Below are positions 1,189 to 34,874 of a stretch of 64,000 nt of DNA, one piece after another; position 1 is the first letter of the stretch, and each line of letters opens with the position of its first letter. The notes below the pieces were generated by a model. The model saw nothing but the letters and a program-made list of their open reading frames with translations. It searched no databases and had not been told where the DNA came from. The position numbers and the translations under genes were made by a program. The stretch comes from a bacterium (GTDB lineage: Bacteria; UBP6; UBA1177; JAKLFG01), in NCBI GenBank assembly GCA_022711315.1, contig JAKLFG010000005.1, forward strand, positions 7,037-71,036, in the 5' to 3' direction.

Positions 1189-2814
1189 TCACCCCGTGAC
1201 GACCACCGTCACGACCGGTTTCTTGTCGGTGAGTTCGGTGAGATATCTGCGGACGATGACGCGGAGGTCGTCCTCTATCTCCTCCGGCTCGCGCGCGGCG
1301 GTCTTCTTGTCGGCGAAATAGTCGTATATGAGATCGCGGAGCGCCCGTTCTATCGACTTCATGGCGCTCGCCGAGGCGATGCCCAGAGAGAAGAAGCGCG
1401 GCGGGGTGACCAGTTTACCCGCGATGAGGTTGGCCGACAGCACCACCGTCATGCCGCCGGAGCGGGCGAGCCGTTTCCGCTCGCGTACCGTCTCGATATC
1501 AACGAGTTCGGTGCTGTAGTTGCTCACGATGCGTTTCTGCAGGTCTATCCGCTGGCGCAGTTCGGAATCCTTCTTGGTGTAAACGAGCACATCGCCGTCC
1601 GATATGAGCCGCGCCGAAAAGCCCTCCTTCTCGAGCACGCGGCAGTGGTGGTCGATGAAACGCAGGTGACCGTGGACCGGGACGATGAGCGACGGGTTCA
1701 CCTCGCGCGCCGCGAGCAGAAGGTCGTCGCGCCGCCCGTGACCCGAGGCGTGGATATTGGCGGTCGCCTCGTAAAAGAGGTTCACCCCCTTCTCGACGAG
1801 CGAGTCCATCATGCGGCCGATGGCGGTCTCGTTGCCCGGGATGATCTTCGACGAGAACAGTATCGTGTCACCGTACTTGAGCGGCACCGCCTTGAGCATG
1901 TCGAGCGACAGCCGCTTCATGATGGAGCGCGGTTCGGCCTGCGAGCCGGTGACTATCATGAGCAGTTTCTTGTCCGGTATCAGGGAGAACTGCGTCTCGT
2001 CGGTGACGATCGACCCGGGCAGTTCGAGATAGCCGAGTTGCTGGGCGAGGCGGGTGTAGTTGCGGACGCTGCGACCCATGAACCCGACAGTGCGGCCCGA
2101 TTCCTGCGCGACGGCGATGATGTTCTTTATCCGATCGATGTTCGAAGAAAAGGCGGTGACTATGATGCGCCCCTTCGCCCCGGCGATGATCCTGCGGAGG
2201 TTCGGGATGAGTTCCGGCTCCTGCTTCGAGACCCCTTCCCGCTCGATGTTGGTCGAATCGACGAACATCATGTCGATATCCTCGGGCACCTTCTTGTAGA
2301 ACGGCGAGTGGCCCGAGCCGTCGCACTTGAAGTCGCCGGTATGGAGCAGTTTGAACGGTCCCGCCTCGATGAGCAGCCCCTTCGCCTCCGGTATGCTGTG
2401 CGGCACCGGGAGCATCCGGACCGTGAACGGGCCGATCTCGATGGGCGCCTTGCGCTTGGCCGGGAGCACCACGAGATTCTGATATCGCGCCACCTTACCC
2501 ATCCGCTCCTTGAGCAGGCCCGCCGGGAACTCGGTGAGATAGACCGGCACATCGTGGTCGCGCAGGAGATAGGGTATCGCCCCGATGTGGTCCTCGTGAC
2601 CGTGCGTGACGACCACCCCTTCGAGCGTGACGCCGAGCGTCGCCAGCGCGTCGAAGTCGGGGATGAAGAAATCGTCGTCCATCAGGTAATCGTTGCCCGG
2701 GAAGCCCATACCACAGTCCACCATGAGCGCCTTTTTGTGGTAGATGAGGAGCAGGCAGTTCTTGCCGACCTCGCGCAACCCGCCGAGCGGCACCGCCATG
2801 ATCTGTTCAGCCAT
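1189..2814 (-). CDS. rnj: Ribonuclease J (metallo-beta-lactamase / beta-CASP RNase)
   Basis: VVVTHGHEDHIGAIPYLL (HxHxDH motif) and LGGLREVGKNC N-terminus; about 540 aa, typical of RNase J. ATG at 2814 (MAEQIMAVPLGG) preferred because GAGG lies upstream; the track start at 2832 is TTG. Confidence 0.9.
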   Translation of the reverse strand: MAEQIMAVPLGGLREVGKNCLLLIYHKKALMVDCGMGFPGNDYLMDDDFFIPDFDALATLGVTLEGVVVTHGHEDHIGAIPYLLRDHDVPVYLTEFPAGLLKERMGKVARYQNLVVLPAKRKAPIEIGPFTVRMLPVPHSIPEAKGLLIEAGPFKLLHTGDFKCDGSGHSPFYKKVPEDIDMMFVDSTNIEREGVSKQEPELIPNLRRIIAGAKGRIIVTAFSSNIDRIKNIIAVAQESGRTVGFMGRSVRNYTRLAQQLGYLELPGSIVTDETQFSLIPDKKLLMIVTGSQAEPRSIMKRLSLDMLKAVPLKYGDTILFSSKIIPGNETAIGRMMDSLVEKGVNLFYEATANIHASGHGRRDDLLLAAREVNPSLIVPVHGHLRFIDHHCRVLEKEGFSARLISDGDVLVYTKKDSELRQRIDLQKRIVSNYSTELVDIETVRERKRLARSGGMTVVLSANLIAGKLVTPPRFFSLGIASASAMKSIERALRDLIYDYFADKKTAAREPEEIEDDLRVIVRRYLTELTDKKPVVTVVVTG

Positions 2815-2998
2815 CGCATACCTCGCGCACAAGCAAAAGAACGGCGCATCCTAGCACAGGTCCCGTCCGGGAGCAATATAAACCCGCTTCCCCTACTCCG
2901 CCGATATCACTAGGACATTAACCCCGGAATGTTCTTTGCTCTTTTAAGAGTCATGAGGTGTCTTTACACGAACCACTGACACATAACGGAGTATCGTC

Positions 2999-5329
2999 AT
3001 GAAAAAGACCCTGTTCCTGTCGCTTCTTTCCTTCGCGTTCCTGCTCGGCGCCGCCGATGTCGCCGCGCCGAAGATCGCCTTCAAGGGGACCGTCCCCTCC
3101 TTCGTCACCGACCTCACGGTGACCCTGCCGGCCGACGAGGCGGCGGTCACCCGCTGGCTCTCCCGCGAATTCCTGCCGACCTACCTGCCCCGCACCGCCG
3201 CGAAACCGACGCTCGCGCGGCATATCGGCCACGACGGTCACCGCCTGTTCCGGTACGGCTACACGGTCGGCGGCGTGACGGTCGAGGGGGCGTTCACCAC
3301 CGTCGCCCTGCGCGACGGCACGGTGTACCGCGTGACCAACTCGCTCGGCGCGATACCCGCCATCGACACGACGCCGGTCCTCTCGGCCGCCGACGCCGCC
3401 CGCGTCGCCTTCACCGCGCAGACCGGCCGGTCCATCCTCTCCGCGCCGCGTCACTGGGCCGAGAAGCGGATCGTGCGGCACCACGGCTCGTGGCGTCTCG
3501 TATGGAAAGTACGGCTGACCCCGGTGTCGCTCGCCGACGGCCGGTTCTACTACATCGACGCCCGCGACGGCGCCCTGCTCGGCGGCGGTGATGACACGCG
3601 GTTCGCCGAGCCGACCGACATGGCCAAGGTCTTTGAGACCAATCCCAAGCGGAACAAGACCCCCATCGAGGTCGAACTGCCGTGGATCGATCCGACCGAC
3701 GGCAAACTGACCTCGGCCCCCGACGAGGAGGGGGTGCGCGCCGTCGTTGCCGCCAACTGCCCCGACGAGGGGAAGACCATCGAGGTGACCGGGTACGGCA
3801 CGCTCGCCATCTGCACCGCGAAGCAGATCGCCGACAAGAACGAGAACGGCAGTTTCATCTACGAGGACTGGGACGACGGAGTGGCGATGAAATTCGACGC
3901 CGCCGACATCTATCCCGAGGTCTCGATGTACTACCACGCCTCGAAGATATACAAGTTCCTGCGTGACCTCGAACTCGACGGGTTCCACTACTTGAGCGGC
4001 CACAATGTCGGGTCGGCCAATCCGAGCCCGCTCATCGTCGTCGCCAACTTCCAGATGCCCACGCAGGGAGGCGGCCTCTCGCCGATGGACAACGCCTTCT
4101 TCTCGGCGGTCCAGCCCGGCTTCACCGACATCTTCTTCGCCGATTTCCCCTATCAGGGCGACATGCTCGTCTTCGGGCAGGGGACCAAGACCGATTTCGC
4201 CTATGACGGCGATGTGATATACCACGAGTTCGGCCACGCCGTCGAGGCGGCGACCTCAGGGCTCTCCCCGATGCCCTATGCCGACAAGTACGGCTTTTCG
4301 AACATCCCCGTCAGCATCAACGAGGGGATCGCCGACAGTTTCTCCTTCATCATGTCGCAGGACGCCTGCCTCGGTGAATACGCCTCCGAAGGGCTCGCCT
4401 CGCTGGCGGGCTACGAGAAGGGCGAGGAGGGGTTCTACTGCATGCGCCGCGCCGACAACGGCAATCTCGTCAACGAGGACTTCACCGGTGAGTCGCACGA
4501 GGATGGACTTCCCTTCGTCGGGATGAACTGGGCGCTGTATCAGGAGGGGCTCAAGAACGACCTGACCCGCGAGGACTTCGCGCGACTCTTCCTCCGGATG
4601 CTCCTCTCGTTCGCCGACCCCGAGGCAACTCCTCAGGATTACGCCGACATCATGCTTTCCGAGATCGAGAACGACCCGAAGTTCAAGCCGCTCAAGGATA
4701 CCGTCGCGACGCTTCTCGAAGAGCGTGGATTCAACGAACCGGCCCGCGCCCGCGACATCACCCGCCCGGTGACCTACATCATGTCGGGCGGCACCTCGTC
4801 GTCCTACGGCGCGCCGACCAGTTCCTTCACCGCCGATGTGGCGGGTGACGAGATGAAGATCGCCCCCGCCTATGTCCAGTTCTACTTCGATATGCCGGCC
4901 TGCATGGACACGCTTACGGTGACCGGTCGCGGCGTATCGACCTCGCAGTCGGGCGGCACCGCGCCCCGCTACTGGCTGTTCGTCCGCAAGGATGCGCCGG
5001 TGACCTACACCATCGACGATTACCCGGTACCGGTCGCGCTCGACACGGTCGTCGAGCCGGTGGACAACATCTACGAGATAAAGAACCTTGAGGCGGGCGC
5101 CCGCTACTACCTCCATTTCGTGAATGTCGCCTCTTCCGAAGGGGTCGTCGCCTACATCTCGGCGAACGCGACCCGTTCCAGTGCCGACCAGTGCGTCGAG
5201 AACCCCGATGATGTCGTGCCCGACGACGAGACGACCGACGAACTCGCCGACGCCGACACGGTCGTCGTCCCCGATGAGGCCGACACGAAGAAGGGGTCGT
5301 CGGGCGGCTGTTCGCTGACCTTGTTCTAA
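2999..5329 (+). CDS. Secreted zinc metalloprotease, gluzincin type (thermolysin/fungalysin-like), with acidic C-terminal linker
   Basis: Signal peptide MKKTLFLSLLSFAFLLGAADVAA. HEFGH at 4223-4237 followed by INEGIADSFSF (third-ligand Glu motif). C-terminal DDVVPDDETTDELADADTVVVPDEAD linker. Confidence 0.75.
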   Translation: MKKTLFLSLLSFAFLLGAADVAAPKIAFKGTVPSFVTDLTVTLPADEAAVTRWLSREFLPTYLPRTAAKPTLARHIGHDGHRLFRYGYTVGGVTVEGAFTTVALRDGTVYRVTNSLGAIPAIDTTPVLSAADAARVAFTAQTGRSILSAPRHWAEKRIVRHHGSWRLVWKVRLTPVSLADGRFYYIDARDGALLGGGDDTRFAEPTDMAKVFETNPKRNKTPIEVELPWIDPTDGKLTSAPDEEGVRAVVAANCPDEGKTIEVTGYGTLAICTAKQIADKNENGSFIYEDWDDGVAMKFDAADIYPEVSMYYHASKIYKFLRDLELDGFHYLSGHNVGSANPSPLIVVANFQMPTQGGGLSPMDNAFFSAVQPGFTDIFFADFPYQGDMLVFGQGTKTDFAYDGDVIYHEFGHAVEAATSGLSPMPYADKYGFSNIPVSINEGIADSFSFIMSQDACLGEYASEGLASLAGYEKGEEGFYCMRRADNGNLVNEDFTGESHEDGLPFVGMNWALYQEGLKNDLTREDFARLFLRMLLSFADPEATPQDYADIMLSEIENDPKFKPLKDTVATLLEERGFNEPARARDITRPVTYIMSGGTSSSYGAPTSSFTADVAGDEMKIAPAYVQFYFDMPACMDTLTVTGRGVSTSQSGGTAPRYWLFVRKDAPVTYTIDDYPVPVALDTVVEPVDNIYEIKNLEAGARYYLHFVNVASSEGVVAYISANATRSSADQCVENPDDVVPDDETTDELADADTVVVPDEADTKKGSSGGCSLTLF

Positions 5330-30977: not shown

Positions 30978-31673
30978 ATGGCACGCGAACGGATACTGGT
31001 GGTCGACGACGAGCAGGACATCCTTGAACTGATCCGCTACAACCTGTCGCGCGAAGGGTATCAGCTCGACACGGTGCTGAGCGGCGAAGAGGCGATCAAG
31101 ATCGCCCGCGACCGTCACCCCGACCTCATCATCCTCGACCTCATGCTCCCCGGCATCGACGGTCTGGATGTCTGCCGCCTGCTCAAAGGCGAAACGCGCA
31201 CGGCCCACATCCCCATCATCATGCTGACGGCCAAAGGGGAGGACAGCGATGTGGTGACCGGGCTCGAACTCGGCGCCGAGGACTACATGACCAAGCCCTT
31301 CAGCCCCAAGGTGCTCATCGCGCGGGTCCGCAACATCCTGCGACGCAAGACGCGGATCGCCGAGGAGAAAGAGGTCAAGATGGTGATCATCGAGAATATG
31401 AAGATAGACCCGTCGAAGCATAAGGTGACGGTGGGGAAGGAGGAGGTCGATCTCACGGCGACCGAGTTCGCGCTCCTGATGTTCCTCGCCAAGCGGCCCG
31501 GCTGGGTCTTCACCCGCAGCCAGATCATCAACGGCGTTAAGGGCGACGACTACCCGGTGACCGACCGTTCGGTCGATGTGCAGATACTCAACCTGCGCAA
31601 GAAACTGGGCGATATGGGCGAATACATCGAAACGGTGCGCGGCGTCGGCTACCGGTTCAAGGAACTCAACTGA
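30978..31673 (+). CDS. OmpR/PhoB-family response regulator (likely the Pho regulator)
   Basis: ILVVDDEQDILELI...DLIILDLMLPGIDG...YMTKPFSPKVLIARV receiver domain plus a winged-helix C-terminus (ETVRGVGYRF). GGGAGG lies 6 nt before ATG 30978. Confidence 0.85.
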   Translation: MARERILVVDDEQDILELIRYNLSREGYQLDTVLSGEEAIKIARDRHPDLIILDLMLPGIDGLDVCRLLKGETRTAHIPIIMLTAKGEDSDVVTGLELGAEDYMTKPFSPKVLIARVRNILRRKTRIAEEKEVKMVIIENMKIDPSKHKVTVGKEEVDLTATEFALLMFLAKRPGWVFTRSQIINGVKGDDYPVTDRSVDVQILNLRKKLGDMGEYIETVRGVGYRFKELN

Positions 31674-31683
31674 GAGGCCATCC

Positions 31684-32367
31684 ATGCAACGATTCGACGG
31701 CTTTTCCAAAGAGACGCTCGCCTTTTTCGCGGGACTGAAAAAGAATAACTCCAGCGCATGGTTCGATGCGCACCGGAAGGAGTACGAGCAGTTCGTGAAA
31801 AAACCGACGCAACTGTTCGTGCAGGCGATGGAGGAGCCGCTGATGCTTCTCGACAGCGGCATCAACGCGGTGCCGAAGGTCAACCACAGCATTTTCCGGC
31901 TCAACCGCGACACCCGTTTCTCGAACGACAAGACCCCGTATAAAACGAATCTCGGCGTCTGGTTCTGGAGCGGCGTCCGGCCGCGGATGGAATGCAGCGG
32001 CTTCTACCTGCAGGTCGAGAACGGCGAAGTGATGCTCGGCACCGGGATGTATATGTTCCCCCGCGATCTTATGTCGGCCTACCGCGACGCCGTCGCCGAT
32101 CCGAAAAAGGGGACACTGCTCCTGAAGCTGGCCGGGAAGATGGAGAAAGAGGGCTACGGTATCGGCGGCGAGCACTACAAGAAGGTGCCGGCCGGTTATG
32201 ATAAGGAACTGCCGCAGGCGCGGTTCCTGCGCTACAACGGTATCTACGCCGGGTTCGAGACAAAGGTCCCCAAGGATTTCTACAGCGCGAAGTTCGTCGA
32301 CTGGTGCTTCCTCCATTTCCGGAAGACGCTGCCGCTCCACCAGTGGCTCAAGGATACGCTGGGATAG
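31684..32367 (+). CDS. DUF2461 (TIGR02453) family protein
   Basis: FSKETLAFFAGLKKNNSSAWFDAHRKEYEQFVKKP...FRLNRDTRFSNDKTPYKT is the DUF2461 signature. Confidence 0.8.
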   Translation: MQRFDGFSKETLAFFAGLKKNNSSAWFDAHRKEYEQFVKKPTQLFVQAMEEPLMLLDSGINAVPKVNHSIFRLNRDTRFSNDKTPYKTNLGVWFWSGVRPRMECSGFYLQVENGEVMLGTGMYMFPRDLMSAYRDAVADPKKGTLLLKLAGKMEKEGYGIGGEHYKKVPAGYDKELPQARFLRYNGIYAGFETKVPKDFYSAKFVDWCFLHFRKTLPLHQWLKDTLG

Positions 32368-32378
32368 ACCCTCAACAA

Positions 32379-32393
32379 TCCGGAAATTCCGGA
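32379..32393 (+). terminator. Palindrome after the DUF2461 stop (weak terminator candidate)
   Basis: TCCGGAAATTCCGGA, 12 nt after TAG 32365-32367. No clear U-tract. Confidence 0.2.
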
Positions 32394-32760
32394 TAGTTCA
32401 AAGAATGGATTCAGTTGTAAAGGGATTCTTTACATCTTGAGTTTGTCGAAACACCTTTTACTAGGTCTATACAGCGGGGCGCTTGCGACAAAAACGGGGT
32501 AAAGCTCTTCCTATCCATCTTTACAGAACGGGGAAAAGGTCTGTTTGCAGGGCGATTTTCGACAACCGCTACTATGCGGCGGAAAGGTAGGTCGCCAACA
32601 CATTGATATCATTGTTATTTTCTGACTGTCGCAAGCGGGGCGCTGCAAACAGTCGAAAATAGCCTTTCGACACACCGAGAAGATTGCTTAATATATTGTT
32701 ATTGTTGGAGATTAGCGTTCTATCGAGTTCGCGAAAAGCGGAATGCCCAATGATTACAAG

Positions 32761-32798
32761 AGTTTCCGTTTCGCATATCAGGCCTTTATGTCTCCTGC
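32761..32798. repeat. Left copy of a perfect 38-bp direct repeat (CRISPR-repeat-like)
   Basis: AGTTTCCGTTTCGCATATCAGGCCTTTATGTCTCCTGC, identical to 33448-33485. Contains the stop and last 6 codons of the lipoprotein ORF. Confidence 0.95.
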
Positions 32799-33416
32799 AG
32801 GATTGGGCTTGGTAGCCCGATAGAGAATCCTGATGTCTGCAAGGGAACCGTCATCACGACGAAACATTTCGGATTTTAGTGTGTCTGTTTCGGTTTGATA
32901 AGTGAAAACGAAACACATCACACTAGTGCATCCCCCATTTTCTACTGTGCCGATCAGGGGGTTGGCGTCCGCGGGGATAATAATGAGTTGGAAGAACTTG
33001 TCTTCAGAAAAGTAACAGCTTTTGGATTCAGGATCATATCCAGTATAGATGGTGGTATGTTCCTGATAACCACCGGGATTATTATAAACCCAGTAGCCGT
33101 CCATCATCTGGATTTCGGGCAGACAGTCGACCACATCTTGGTCAGGTTCTTCATCTGCCAGGATCTGATCGTCATCTACCGGCTCGTTATCCATCGGTTC
33201 GGTGTCGGTCTGGATGTTGTCCGTCTGGACATCATCCGGGATTTCGTTGTCCACCGGCTCGACATTGTCTGTCGGCTCGGTGTCATCCACCACGACGCTG
33301 TCGTCGGTCGGCTGGTTGTTGTCAACCGGGGGGTTGTTTTCCTCACCGCCACAGGCGATGAAGAAGATTGAGACGAAGGCAAAGAAGGCAACGAAAAAGG
33401 CGTTCTTGGCGTTCAT
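32778..33416 (-). CDS. Lipoprotein with acidic linker, unknown function
   Basis: FVSIFFIACGGEENNPPVDNNQPTDDSVVVDDTEPTD lipobox plus linker. AAGGAG RBS. The 3' end (AGDIKA-stop) lies inside the repeat. Confidence 0.6.
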   Translation of the reverse strand: MNAKNAFFVAFFAFVSIFFIACGGEENNPPVDNNQPTDDSVVVDDTEPTDNVEPVDNEIPDDVQTDNIQTDTEPMDNEPVDDDQILADEEPDQDVVDCLPEIQMMDGYWVYNNPGGYQEHTTIYTGYDPESKSCYFSEDKFFQLIIIPADANPLIGTVENGGCTSVMCFVFTYQTETDTLKSEMFRRDDGSLADIRILYRATKPNPAGDIKA

Positions 33417-33447
33417 GATAGTTCTCCTTATAGGATGTTGATAGTAA

Positions 33448-33485
33448 AGTTTCCGTTTCGCATATCAGGCCTTTATGTCTCCTGC
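33448..33485. repeat. Right copy of the perfect 38-bp direct repeat
   Basis: Base-by-base identical to 32761-32798; identity ends abruptly on both sides. Confidence 0.95.
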
Positions 33486-33491
33486 TCTTGG

Positions 33492-33519
33492 ACTTTAACC
33501 GTTAAACTTAATTGTGCAA
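33492..33519 (-). promoter_or_regulatory. Sigma70-like promoter reading into the right repeat copy
   Basis: Minus strand: TTGCAC (33519-33514), 16-nt spacer, TAAAGT (33497-33492). The predicted start is about 33484-33486, at the repeat edge. Confidence 0.35.
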
Positions 33520-33528
33520 CCATCTGAA

Positions 33529-34203
33529 TTAACTCGCCTTGCCCATCTTCGATTTCAAGAAGCCTATATGCTCCTCAAGTTTGAGTATCGCATTTTCGAC
33601 CTCCTCGACATTATTTAAGTCTTTGATTTTAATGGATATATTTCCGTTCTTCTCTTTCTCTCCCGCGCGCGTGCCTTCCTTATCCTTATTAAGTACATAG
33701 GTCTCGTACGCCCATCGGATGCCCTTCTTTTTCATCTTCTCGATCCTTACCTTGCTTCCCTCAACTGCCTTATATGTCTTGAGATATTGGCTGACTAGAC
33801 TTTCCGAATAACCGGCGAGTTCCGCTATCGCTCGCTGTATCATCCCCAGTTCCGCAAGTTTGAAGAAACTTTCCGCGATCTCCCATGCGTTCAGATCGTC
33901 CCGCTGGAGGTTTTCGATAAGCGAAAGTTCTCGGGTCTTACTTTCCGACTCTACATCGGAAATAATGGCCGGTATGGTTTCACGGCACAGTTGCACGAAT
34001 GCGCGATACCGACGATGACCGGCGATAATGAAATAGCCACTGCCATACGGCGACTTCCGCACCATGATCGGTTGCATGAGTCCGTGGGTGGTAATGCTCT
34101 TGGCAAGAGCGGCCACCCGTTCAGGGTCGATTTCCTGCCGCGGTTGACCGGGATCTTCGGTTATTTCAGAAAGAGGAAGGTCTTTCACTTCAAAGTTTTG
34201 CAT
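33529..34203 (-). CDS. ParB/Srx-fold N-terminal domain protein with HTH (ParB-like)
   Basis: GLMQPIMVR...IIAGHRRYRA...SLIENLQRDDLN (ParB boxes), then HTH-like MIQRAIAELAGYSESLVSQYL. AGGAGG RBS. Confidence 0.8.
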   Translation of the reverse strand: MQNFEVKDLPLSEITEDPGQPRQEIDPERVAALAKSITTHGLMQPIMVRKSPYGSGYFIIAGHRRYRAFVQLCRETIPAIISDVESESKTRELSLIENLQRDDLNAWEIAESFFKLAELGMIQRAIAELAGYSESLVSQYLKTYKAVEGSKVRIEKMKKKGIRWAYETYVLNKDKEGTRAGEKEKNGNISIKIKDLNNVEEVENAILKLEEHIGFLKSKMGKAS

Positions 34204-34487: not shown

Positions 34488-34874
34488 ATGCCGTTGTGTA
34501 CCGTTACCGGTATCGAGATGATGCTCAATGAGGCCTATGTACTTGATCTGTATGAGATTAAGCGGGCCGTCCGTGAGTGCAAGAACCGGCTCGCCGCCTT
34601 GGAGCGTCTTGAGCGCGACTACGGCACCCGCGATGTTTTGGAGCGGAAACAGCCCGGCACCGGCCGGATCGAGAAGGCGGTGTTCTATCGGCTGGTTTGT
34701 GAAAGCGCCGCCGCCGAACTTTCCCGCGTCTATCCCAGCCGTCGATTGTTCCTGAGATTCGATGAGTTCCTGTACCTGCGCCGCCGCCGCATCGAAGACT
34801 CGGCATGTCGCGGACAGAATGATCAGCGCCGCGAAAGTCCGCACGATGAGGGAGGCGGCCATGAACAAACATGA
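34488..34874 (+). CDS. 128-aa unknown protein, translationally coupled to the RT-Cas1 gene
   Basis: GAGGTGG RBS at 34477-34483. Predicted helical/coiled (LDLYEIKRAVRECKNRLAALERLERDYG). The stop TGA 34872-34874 overlaps ATG 34861 of the next gene (ATGAACAAACATGA). Confidence 0.5.
   Translation: MPLCTVTGIEMMLNEAYVLDLYEIKRAVRECKNRLAALERLERDYGTRDVLERKQPGTGRIEKAVFYRLVCESAAAELSRVYPSRRLFLRFDEFLYLRRRRIEDSACRGQNDQRRESPHDEGGGHEQT

Follow-up and report, generated by a model that had tools for sequence, protein, structure and literature searches.

The window analysed here, 64,000 nucleotides of bacterial DNA, contains an AT-rich stretch (32400-32760) that lies between a DUF2461 gene (31576-32367, plus strand) and the first of two perfect copies of a 38-nt repeat (32761-32798 and 33448-33485, both on the plus strand). 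The gene order continues with a lipoprotein-like insert on the minus strand between the two repeats, a gene for a ParB_N/HTH protein (33529-34203, minus strand) between the second repeat and an ORF of 128 aa (34488-34874, plus strand), a gene for a reverse transcriptase–Cas1 fusion (RT-Cas1, plus strand), which the 128-aa ORF directly precedes, and PRiA4_ORF3 on the minus strand. Guanine and cytosine account for 160 of the 361 nt of the stretch (44.3%) and for 44.5% of the whole intergenic region (32368-32760), compared with a window average of 60.4%, and the longest ORF inside 32400-32760 is one of 54 aa on the minus strand (32511-32675). An earlier note on this DNA, made from the letters alone, had counted the same 160 G+C by hand (about 44%), had seen no ORF of 60 aa or more wholly within the stretch and had placed the stretch directly against the left 38-nt repeat; all three statements hold.

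DUF2461 is common to relatives in the host's family (84-92% identity), and the homology ends at its stop codon, at 32367, so everything from 32368 on is taken to be an inserted island. The conserved element described below begins about 70 nt past this left edge, leaving 32368-32440 outside it. Directly after the stop codon stands a perfect palindrome, ATCCGGAAATTCCGGAT (32378-32394), with 93-97% copies in two other genomes of the same order (G033 and G017); it might act as a terminator or represent a REP-like element. The idea that the AT-rich stretch is a degraded RhuM-like gene was rejected, as the match to the RhuM-like gene inserted after DUF2461 in genome G004 is a remnant of 29 nt (10 aa) at 32409-32437, outside the conserved leader. 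In that family relative (locus L027, G004:C98), a 335-aa RhuM-like gene comes right after DUF2461 and is flanked by 42-nt copies of the DUF2461 3′ end (340-381 and 1659-1700), a duplication that makes this 3′ end look like an integration hot spot.

A conserved region on one side of the repeat

About 320 nt of the window (32441-32760, plus strand) align, over roughly 330 columns, with DNA found 5′ of a 36-38-nt repeat that starts with GTTT in 13 other loci; the RT-Cas1 proteins of these 13 loci are only 35-45% identical to that of the window. Mean column identity in the alignment of all 14 leader sequences (alignment A2) is 51%, and views of the window, L042, L044 and L046 anchored on the repeat have their common motifs in register. 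An nhmmer profile of the leader scores 180 bits in the window and 127-224 bits for 12 other full-length leader matches, and detects the element in 20 of 56 family loci; in 24 family loci the sequence extends 3 kb or more upstream, and 8 to 10 of these have no profile match or a weak one. The leader is found on the strand of RT-Cas1 and upstream of the gene, except in L042, where it is inverted, and in L089, where it is downstream.

In 14 loci, eight of them with a single repeat copy found, the conserved sequence occupies only one side of the repeat, directly 5′ of its GTTT end; conservation is lacking beyond the repeat or array, and the neighbours at the distal end of the leader vary from locus to locus. 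The G+C content of 13 leaders is 43-55%. Strict TTKCGAC half-sites occur 43 times in 13 leaders of 340 nt, as against 0.12 times per 340 nt in the rest of the same loci, and they recur at -326/-317, -289/-279, -207, -134, -112/-110 and -99/-97 from the repeat. The region has three properties of a CRISPR leader: it lies directly 5′ of the first repeat and on one side only, it is AT-rich and non-coding, and it is conserved with motifs at fixed distances. Among the readings in the earlier note were a leader-like element and arrays of protein-binding sites, and these are supported by the one-sided conservation in the 14 loci and by the boxes, which keep fixed offsets.

Boxes, a putative bend site and a predicted promoter

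The leader carries five boxes made of one half-site. Box A, the most distant, is TGTCGAAAC (32444-32452), with the half-site TTTCGACA on the minus strand at about -318 from the repeat; a reverse half-site occupies the box A position (-317 to -327) in 8 of 13 leaders. Box B, CGCTTGCGACAA (32480-32491, plus strand, about -280), contains the half-site TTGCGACA, and the CG.CA of its ..CGACA is invariant in the 14 sequences. Box C, GCGATTTTCGACAA (32552-32565, plus strand, about -207), is a forward half-site in which GATTTTCG is nearly invariant, and box D, TGTCGCAAGCGG (32627-32638, about -134), has TTGCGACA on the minus strand. Box E is the palindrome GTCGAAAAT-AGCC-TTTCGACA, which involves both strands at 32652-32672 and has the family consensus TGTCGAAAATCGATTTTCGACAA. 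It starts 110-113 nt before the repeat in 11 of the 11 loci where both could be located, and its GTCG..TCGA is invariant in A2 despite the mean column identity of 51%.

Every motif listed in the earlier note is one of these conserved boxes, and its positions are exact: TTTCGACA at 32557 and 32665 on the plus strand and at 32444 on the minus strand, with no further copies in the 64 kb; TTTCGAC at 32652 (minus) and 33594 (plus); and ATTGTTATT repeated at 32611 and 32695. The clustering is marked, with TTKCGACA present in 8 copies in the 64 kb (4.2 expected), 5 of which fall within the 229 nt from 32444 to 32672.

Closer to the repeat is a site that resembles the IHF consensus, TAATATATTGTTA (a TAAnnnnTTGA motif; 32689-32701, plus strand), which matches 8 of 9 specified positions and lies at -73. 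Nine of the 14 leaders carry a match of at least 8/9 to YAANNNNTTGATW at -73 to -75, always oriented alike, and one more (L089) has its match at -83; the TA and TG of the site are invariant columns in A2. A second match in the window, CAACACATTGATA (32596-32608, plus strand, -166), agrees with YAANNNNTTGATW at 9 of 9 specified positions; this perfect match is unconserved at that position in most relatives. The host has four HU/IHF-family genes, and all the homologues score below the IHF-alpha cut-off. The IHF-like match at -73 could also be a coincidence that arises from a conserved AT-rich -10 region; the chance that a conserved 13-mer would fit is estimated at ~5%. That -10 region belongs to a predicted sigma-70-like promoter, TCGACA-16-TAATAT (32667-32694, plus strand; score 9/12), which would read towards the repeat; eight of the ten leaders scored retain its pattern, TCGAC(A/G)-16/17-TAnnnT. 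Conservation is higher for the TTG of the IHF-like motif than for the T6 of the -10 element, and we therefore retain both readings of these nucleotides.

Directly before the repeat stands the junction motif CAATGATTACAA (32748-32759, plus strand), a version of the CAATGA(A/T)T.CA(A/G) that several leaders in A2 have in common. The leader-proximal repeat then has its GTTT from 32762, and the repeats of relatives begin GTTTAC, CTTTAC or GTTTCC at the same offset. Some leaders have hairpins in this area: AAAGCCCTGTCAATCAGGGCTTT spans the leader-repeat junction in L046 (5094-5116) and L061 (7653-7675) and is terminator-like on the minus strand, and L087-type leaders have a different hairpin at about -60 to -30. 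An inverted copy (17/18) of the window's junction (32758-32775) occurs inside the RT-Cas1 gene, as AAGAGTTTCCGTTTCGCA at 36028-36045 (codons ~422-428), where the N-terminal domain gives way to the RT domain; shuffles reach at most 13/18, and the copy is unconserved in 10 relatives.

Taken together, we think it probable that 32441-32760 is the leader of a CRISPR-derived, non-canonical RT-Cas1 module, that is, a DNA element that steers integration and also holds a promoter, and that it is not an RNA gene.

Other possible roles of the stretch

Might the boxes be no more than operators, through which a regulator encoded in the module (e.g. the product of the small ORF) autoregulates the operon, with no integration-site role at all? 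Operators are typically palindromic boxes, the -35-like hexamer sits inside box E and the -10-like TAnnnT is kept. Additionally, the order in L061 is leader, repeat, 23 nt with an AAGGAG ribosome-binding site, small ORF and RT-Cas1, which leaves the leader as the sole stretch that could hold a promoter for the small-ORF/RT-Cas1 operon there. However, 1-2.4 kb of oppositely oriented genes lie between leader and operon in five loci (the window, L044, L039, L088 and L114), and yet these separated leaders keep all boxes and an unchanged spacing to the repeat; it is the repeat, and not the operon, that the element accompanies. A simple operator would also need less than an IHF-like site and five boxes spread over 230 bp. 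We consider a role as promoter and operator alone unlikely.

The possibility that the stretch encodes a structured non-coding RNA, such as a guide or template for the reverse transcriptase with alternative or pseudoknotted helices, deserves a fuller discussion; the earlier note had suggested such structures, or an ncRNA gene, from three perfectly complementary pairs (32480/32627, 32541/32643 and 32555/32652, all with exact coordinates). Some defence reverse transcriptases use an adjacent ncRNA, which lends this reading a precedent, and the complementarity in the stretch is well above chance: it contains four inverted pairs that are perfect, maximal and at least 9 nt long, compared with a mean of 0.23 in dinucleotide shuffles, and 0 of 2000 shuffles reach four. 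One half-site present in both orientations is enough to produce this non-nested complementarity, however, because each copy in one orientation can pair with each copy in the other. When the three long-range helices are placed on A2, 66% of cells are paired, as against 63% with shuffled partners and 33-41% with partners slid by 1-3 columns, and double-sided changes and pair types in the helices are at or below shuffle level, so that there is no excess covariation. The second of these helices, B-B′, is unconserved (53% of A2 cells paired), and boxes C and C′ vary independently, C having become ATTTTCGTA in five loci in which C′ is still GTCGAAAAT. The RNAalifold consensus fold retains the 7-bp hairpin of box E alone, with invariant pairs and 0 compensatory changes.

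Folding energies may be read in the same light. The minimum free energies of the 14 leaders are on average better than those of shuffles, with mean z values of -2.3 and -2.7 on the two strands (the window leader alone has -0.6 for plus and -2.3 for minus), but stability that is alike on both strands and comes without covariation is the pattern that inverted half-sites at the DNA level would give. Rfam had no match to the whole window at gathering thresholds; in E-value mode, 32300-33600 gave one chance match (E = 0.09), inside the lipoprotein ORF. Contigs assembled from four metatranscriptome runs (activated sludge or biofilm) cover the insert in all four and parts of the ParB gene in three. 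Three of these RNA contigs, from three of the runs, cross the leader-repeat junction and end at 32676, 32682 and 32706, and none in the four runs lies over 31400-32675. Such a gap does not count as evidence in itself, and for contigs without strand or true ends the left ends hint only faintly at a boundary, with the distal 300 nt of the leader outside any abundant RNA. Two of the contigs begin upstream of the predicted -10, and the contigs leave the predicted start site unconfirmed. With no excess covariation and a consensus fold of seven invariant pairs, a structured RNA seems to us very unlikely, and the earlier note's RNA reading is not sustained.

The stretch might instead be the subterminal end of a mobile element, with sites that bind a transposase or recombinase, as at the ends of Tn7 or Mu, and that mark the left border of the island. 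The conserved part does begin about 70 nt after homology with relatives stops, and in L088 a tyrosine integrase gene (Phage_integrase family; 2193-3350, minus strand) lies right beside the leader, at its distal end; integrative islands seem to be what carries the RT-Cas1 module from place to place. Against this role, the other end of the island has no matching boxes (the TTKCGACA nearby amounts to two copies inside the RT-Cas1 gene), the boxes are phased to the repeat and not to the island edge, and the neighbours on the distal side of the leader vary between loci. We judge it highly improbable. Least credible of all is the earlier note's proposal of a centromere or iteron region, in which the boxes would be parS-like sites for the ParB_N/HTH protein: the protein is encoded ~770 nt away and inverted-repeat arrays are typical of centromeres, but tblastn finds no homologue of the window ParB in any of 55 related loci, where the boxes are nevertheless kept, the genes at the ParB position in the four relatives examined have no ParB or other significant Pfam domain, and no ParA is present.

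The RT-Cas1 module

The protein that the leader would serve is a fusion listed as an ORF of 1196 aa (34762-38352, plus strand), with RVT_1 at residues 484-690 and Cas1 at 866-1139, preceded by a conserved N-terminal domain of ~420 aa without a Pfam match. The YADD motif (637-640) and the Cas1 residues E1030, H1095 and D1107 are invariant in 10 aligned relatives and, judging by these catalytic residues, RT-Cas1 is presumably an active enzyme. Full-length relatives (35-47% identity) come from MAGs labelled delta-, beta- or gammaproteobacterial or Myxococcales and from many metagenome contigs; plasmid collections contained no full-length RT-Cas1 relative, and the exact box E pattern was not found in viral contigs.

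The second conserved component is the small ORF. An ORF of 95-128 aa precedes RT-Cas1 in about 40 related loci (tblastn; alignment A3), and PRiA4 was found in none of the related loci. The 128-aa protein of the window has no Pfam match, no significant Foldseek match in the PDB (model pLDDT 83) and no Atlas name, and its predicted structure has no recognizable DNA-binding fold; we regard it as a candidate partner of RT-Cas1 or leader-binding protein. There is no match to a Cas2 family in the genome (a MAG that is 83% complete) and there are no effector genes near RT-Cas1. The locus also departs from canonical CRISPR-Cas systems in that its two repeats are 649 nt apart and its relatives have one repeat or inserts of 525-1181 nt. 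Given the lack of a Cas2 match and of nearby effectors, and the size of these inserts, the rules of canonical CRISPR adaptation may not apply.

How, then, might the leader act? In the scheme that we favour, a protein encoded by the module would bind the boxes, with RT-Cas1 itself and/or the conserved 95-128-aa partner as candidates. A bend of the IHF/HU type at about -73 would fold the bound complex back onto the leader-repeat junction, and this folding would fix the site and the polarity at which the Cas1 integrase opens the repeat, with the repeat duplicated around the insert as a result. A weak promoter of the sigma-70 type, its -35 in the right half of box E, may read through the repeat and, in the arrangement without an insert, would drive the small-ORF/RT-Cas1 operon.

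Gene-sized inserts and possible transcript capture

The two identical repeats of the window are the sole copies in the MAG (83% complete), and the 649 nt between them (32799-33447) hold a 212-aa lipoprotein-like ORF on the minus strand (32778-33416), antisense to the direction of the leader. This ORF has been cut short, its last 6 codons and stop being supplied by the repeat. The N-terminus of the lipoprotein (signal peptide, lipobox and an acidic D/E/T/P-rich linker) resembles those of dozens of lipoproteins in the bacterial family, and the closest full-length paralogue in the genome reaches only 40% protein identity. One RNA run, X10, yielded a contig (558 nt, depth 4.1) that joins 33447 to 32761 through a single 38-nt repeat; it could stem from an excised circle, from a tandem duplication, or from a k-mer assembly artefact over a repeat longer than k.

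Elsewhere in the family, eight leader-bearing loci have a single repeat copy (L039, L087/L102, L088, L106, L110, L114 and L116), and a search for degenerate extra repeats beyond ParB or in five single-repeat loci gave none above shuffle level. Four loci (the window, L044, L046 and L042) have two or three identical repeats that are 525-1181 nt apart. The inserts of L044 encode a 352-aa porin (Porin_4) and a 217-aa multihaem cytochrome c, and those of L046 and L042 have small ORFs without a Pfam match. Genome G061, which holds L044, has further repeat copies at C38:1-35, a contig start, and at C45:4893-4920, ~4.9 kb beyond the leader; its arrays may be larger than assembled, or there may be a second module (L048).

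All five insert ORFs are antisense to the leader-to-repeat direction, and in three of the five inserts the T-run of an intrinsic terminator ends exactly at the leader-proximal repeat (L046 5154-5177, L042 2643-2675 and L044 4207-4285). Insert 2 of L044, for example, has a terminator hairpin with a folding energy of -41.8 kcal/mol (z = -4.6) and a U9 tract behind it. A terminator that ends at the repeat is the signature expected if the 3′ end of a transcript had been joined to the repeat. The inserts have no near-identical parent gene in their own genomes (G061 has paralogues of 67-73%, and G062 and G063 have none). The antisense ORFs and the positions of the terminators fit the insertion of transcript copies by RT-Cas1, short of proof, and we tentatively suggest, as one possibility among others, that the leader serves as docking platform for a Cas1-based system of retro-capture in which RT-Cas1 copies whole transcripts and inserts them at the repeat in fixed polarity.

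Comparison with known systems

Leaders of CRISPR types I-E and I-F use IHF plus upstream motifs (PMC5224486; bioRxiv 10.1101/2023.05.26.542337). The E. coli type I-E leader in particular has an IHF site and an upstream site that anchors the integrase (PMC5224486), and it resembles the leader in the window in several ways: AT-rich DNA directly 5′ of the first repeat, a promoter inside it (predicted here), and an upstream motif whose distance is fixed, with an IHF-consensus site (binding is predicted here) between that motif and the repeat. Unlike type I-E, the window has ~320 bp conserved, with its one half-site in five boxes and its palindrome ~110 bp before the repeat; its integrase is RT-Cas1 with an extra N-terminal domain and no Cas2 found, and its inserts are gene-sized. 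In type I-F, a ~150-bp leader is folded by Cas1-2/3 and IHF, and bends bring upstream motifs to the integrase (bioRxiv 10.1101/2023.05.26.542337). The window is similar in its long leader and its two IHF-like sequence matches, at -73 and -166, but the second IHF-like site is not family-wide and the contacts here would span up to ~320 bp.

RT-Cas1/Cas2 modules of types III and VI, such as those of Marinomonas mediterranea and Vibrio vulnificus, have been shown to acquire spacers from RNA (PMC6821258; bioRxiv 10.1101/2023.09.01.555893). The window shares with them a reverse transcriptase like that of group II introns fused to Cas1, and repeat duplication next to a leader. Whereas those systems come with Cas2, effector genes and arrays whose spacers are 30-40 nt long, the branch in the window has an N-terminal domain without a Pfam match, a small ORF instead of a recognizable Cas2, and single repeats or inserts of 525-1181 bp. 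There is also a resemblance to the integron attI site with its Pc promoter, in that a fixed site beside an integrase operon collects whole genes in one orientation. Integrons, however, use a tyrosine recombinase and an attC borne by the cassette, whereas the repeats that flank the insert in the window are identical copies of the local site, a Cas1-type duplication, and genes of the window type point towards the leader and not away from it. In the literature searched, which did not cover most subscription journals, we found no description of this RT-Cas1 branch or of its leader.

Significance

How a Cas1 integrase finds its target is understood for only a few CRISPR types. The leader described here is long, has several boxes and is strictly phased, and it comes from an RT-Cas1 branch with gene-sized inserts and without detected Cas2 or effectors. 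Box E, the site at -73 and the leader-repeat junction are handles on the choice of site and polarity in such a system. If the module does write whole transcripts into DNA, then the leader plus repeat would be its minimal target, which would be of interest for RNA recording and for gene capture. For the bacteria that carry the module, retro-capture, if it is true, would mean that small arrays of complete genes are built next to the leader, and that the leader promoter would make antisense RNA of each captured gene.
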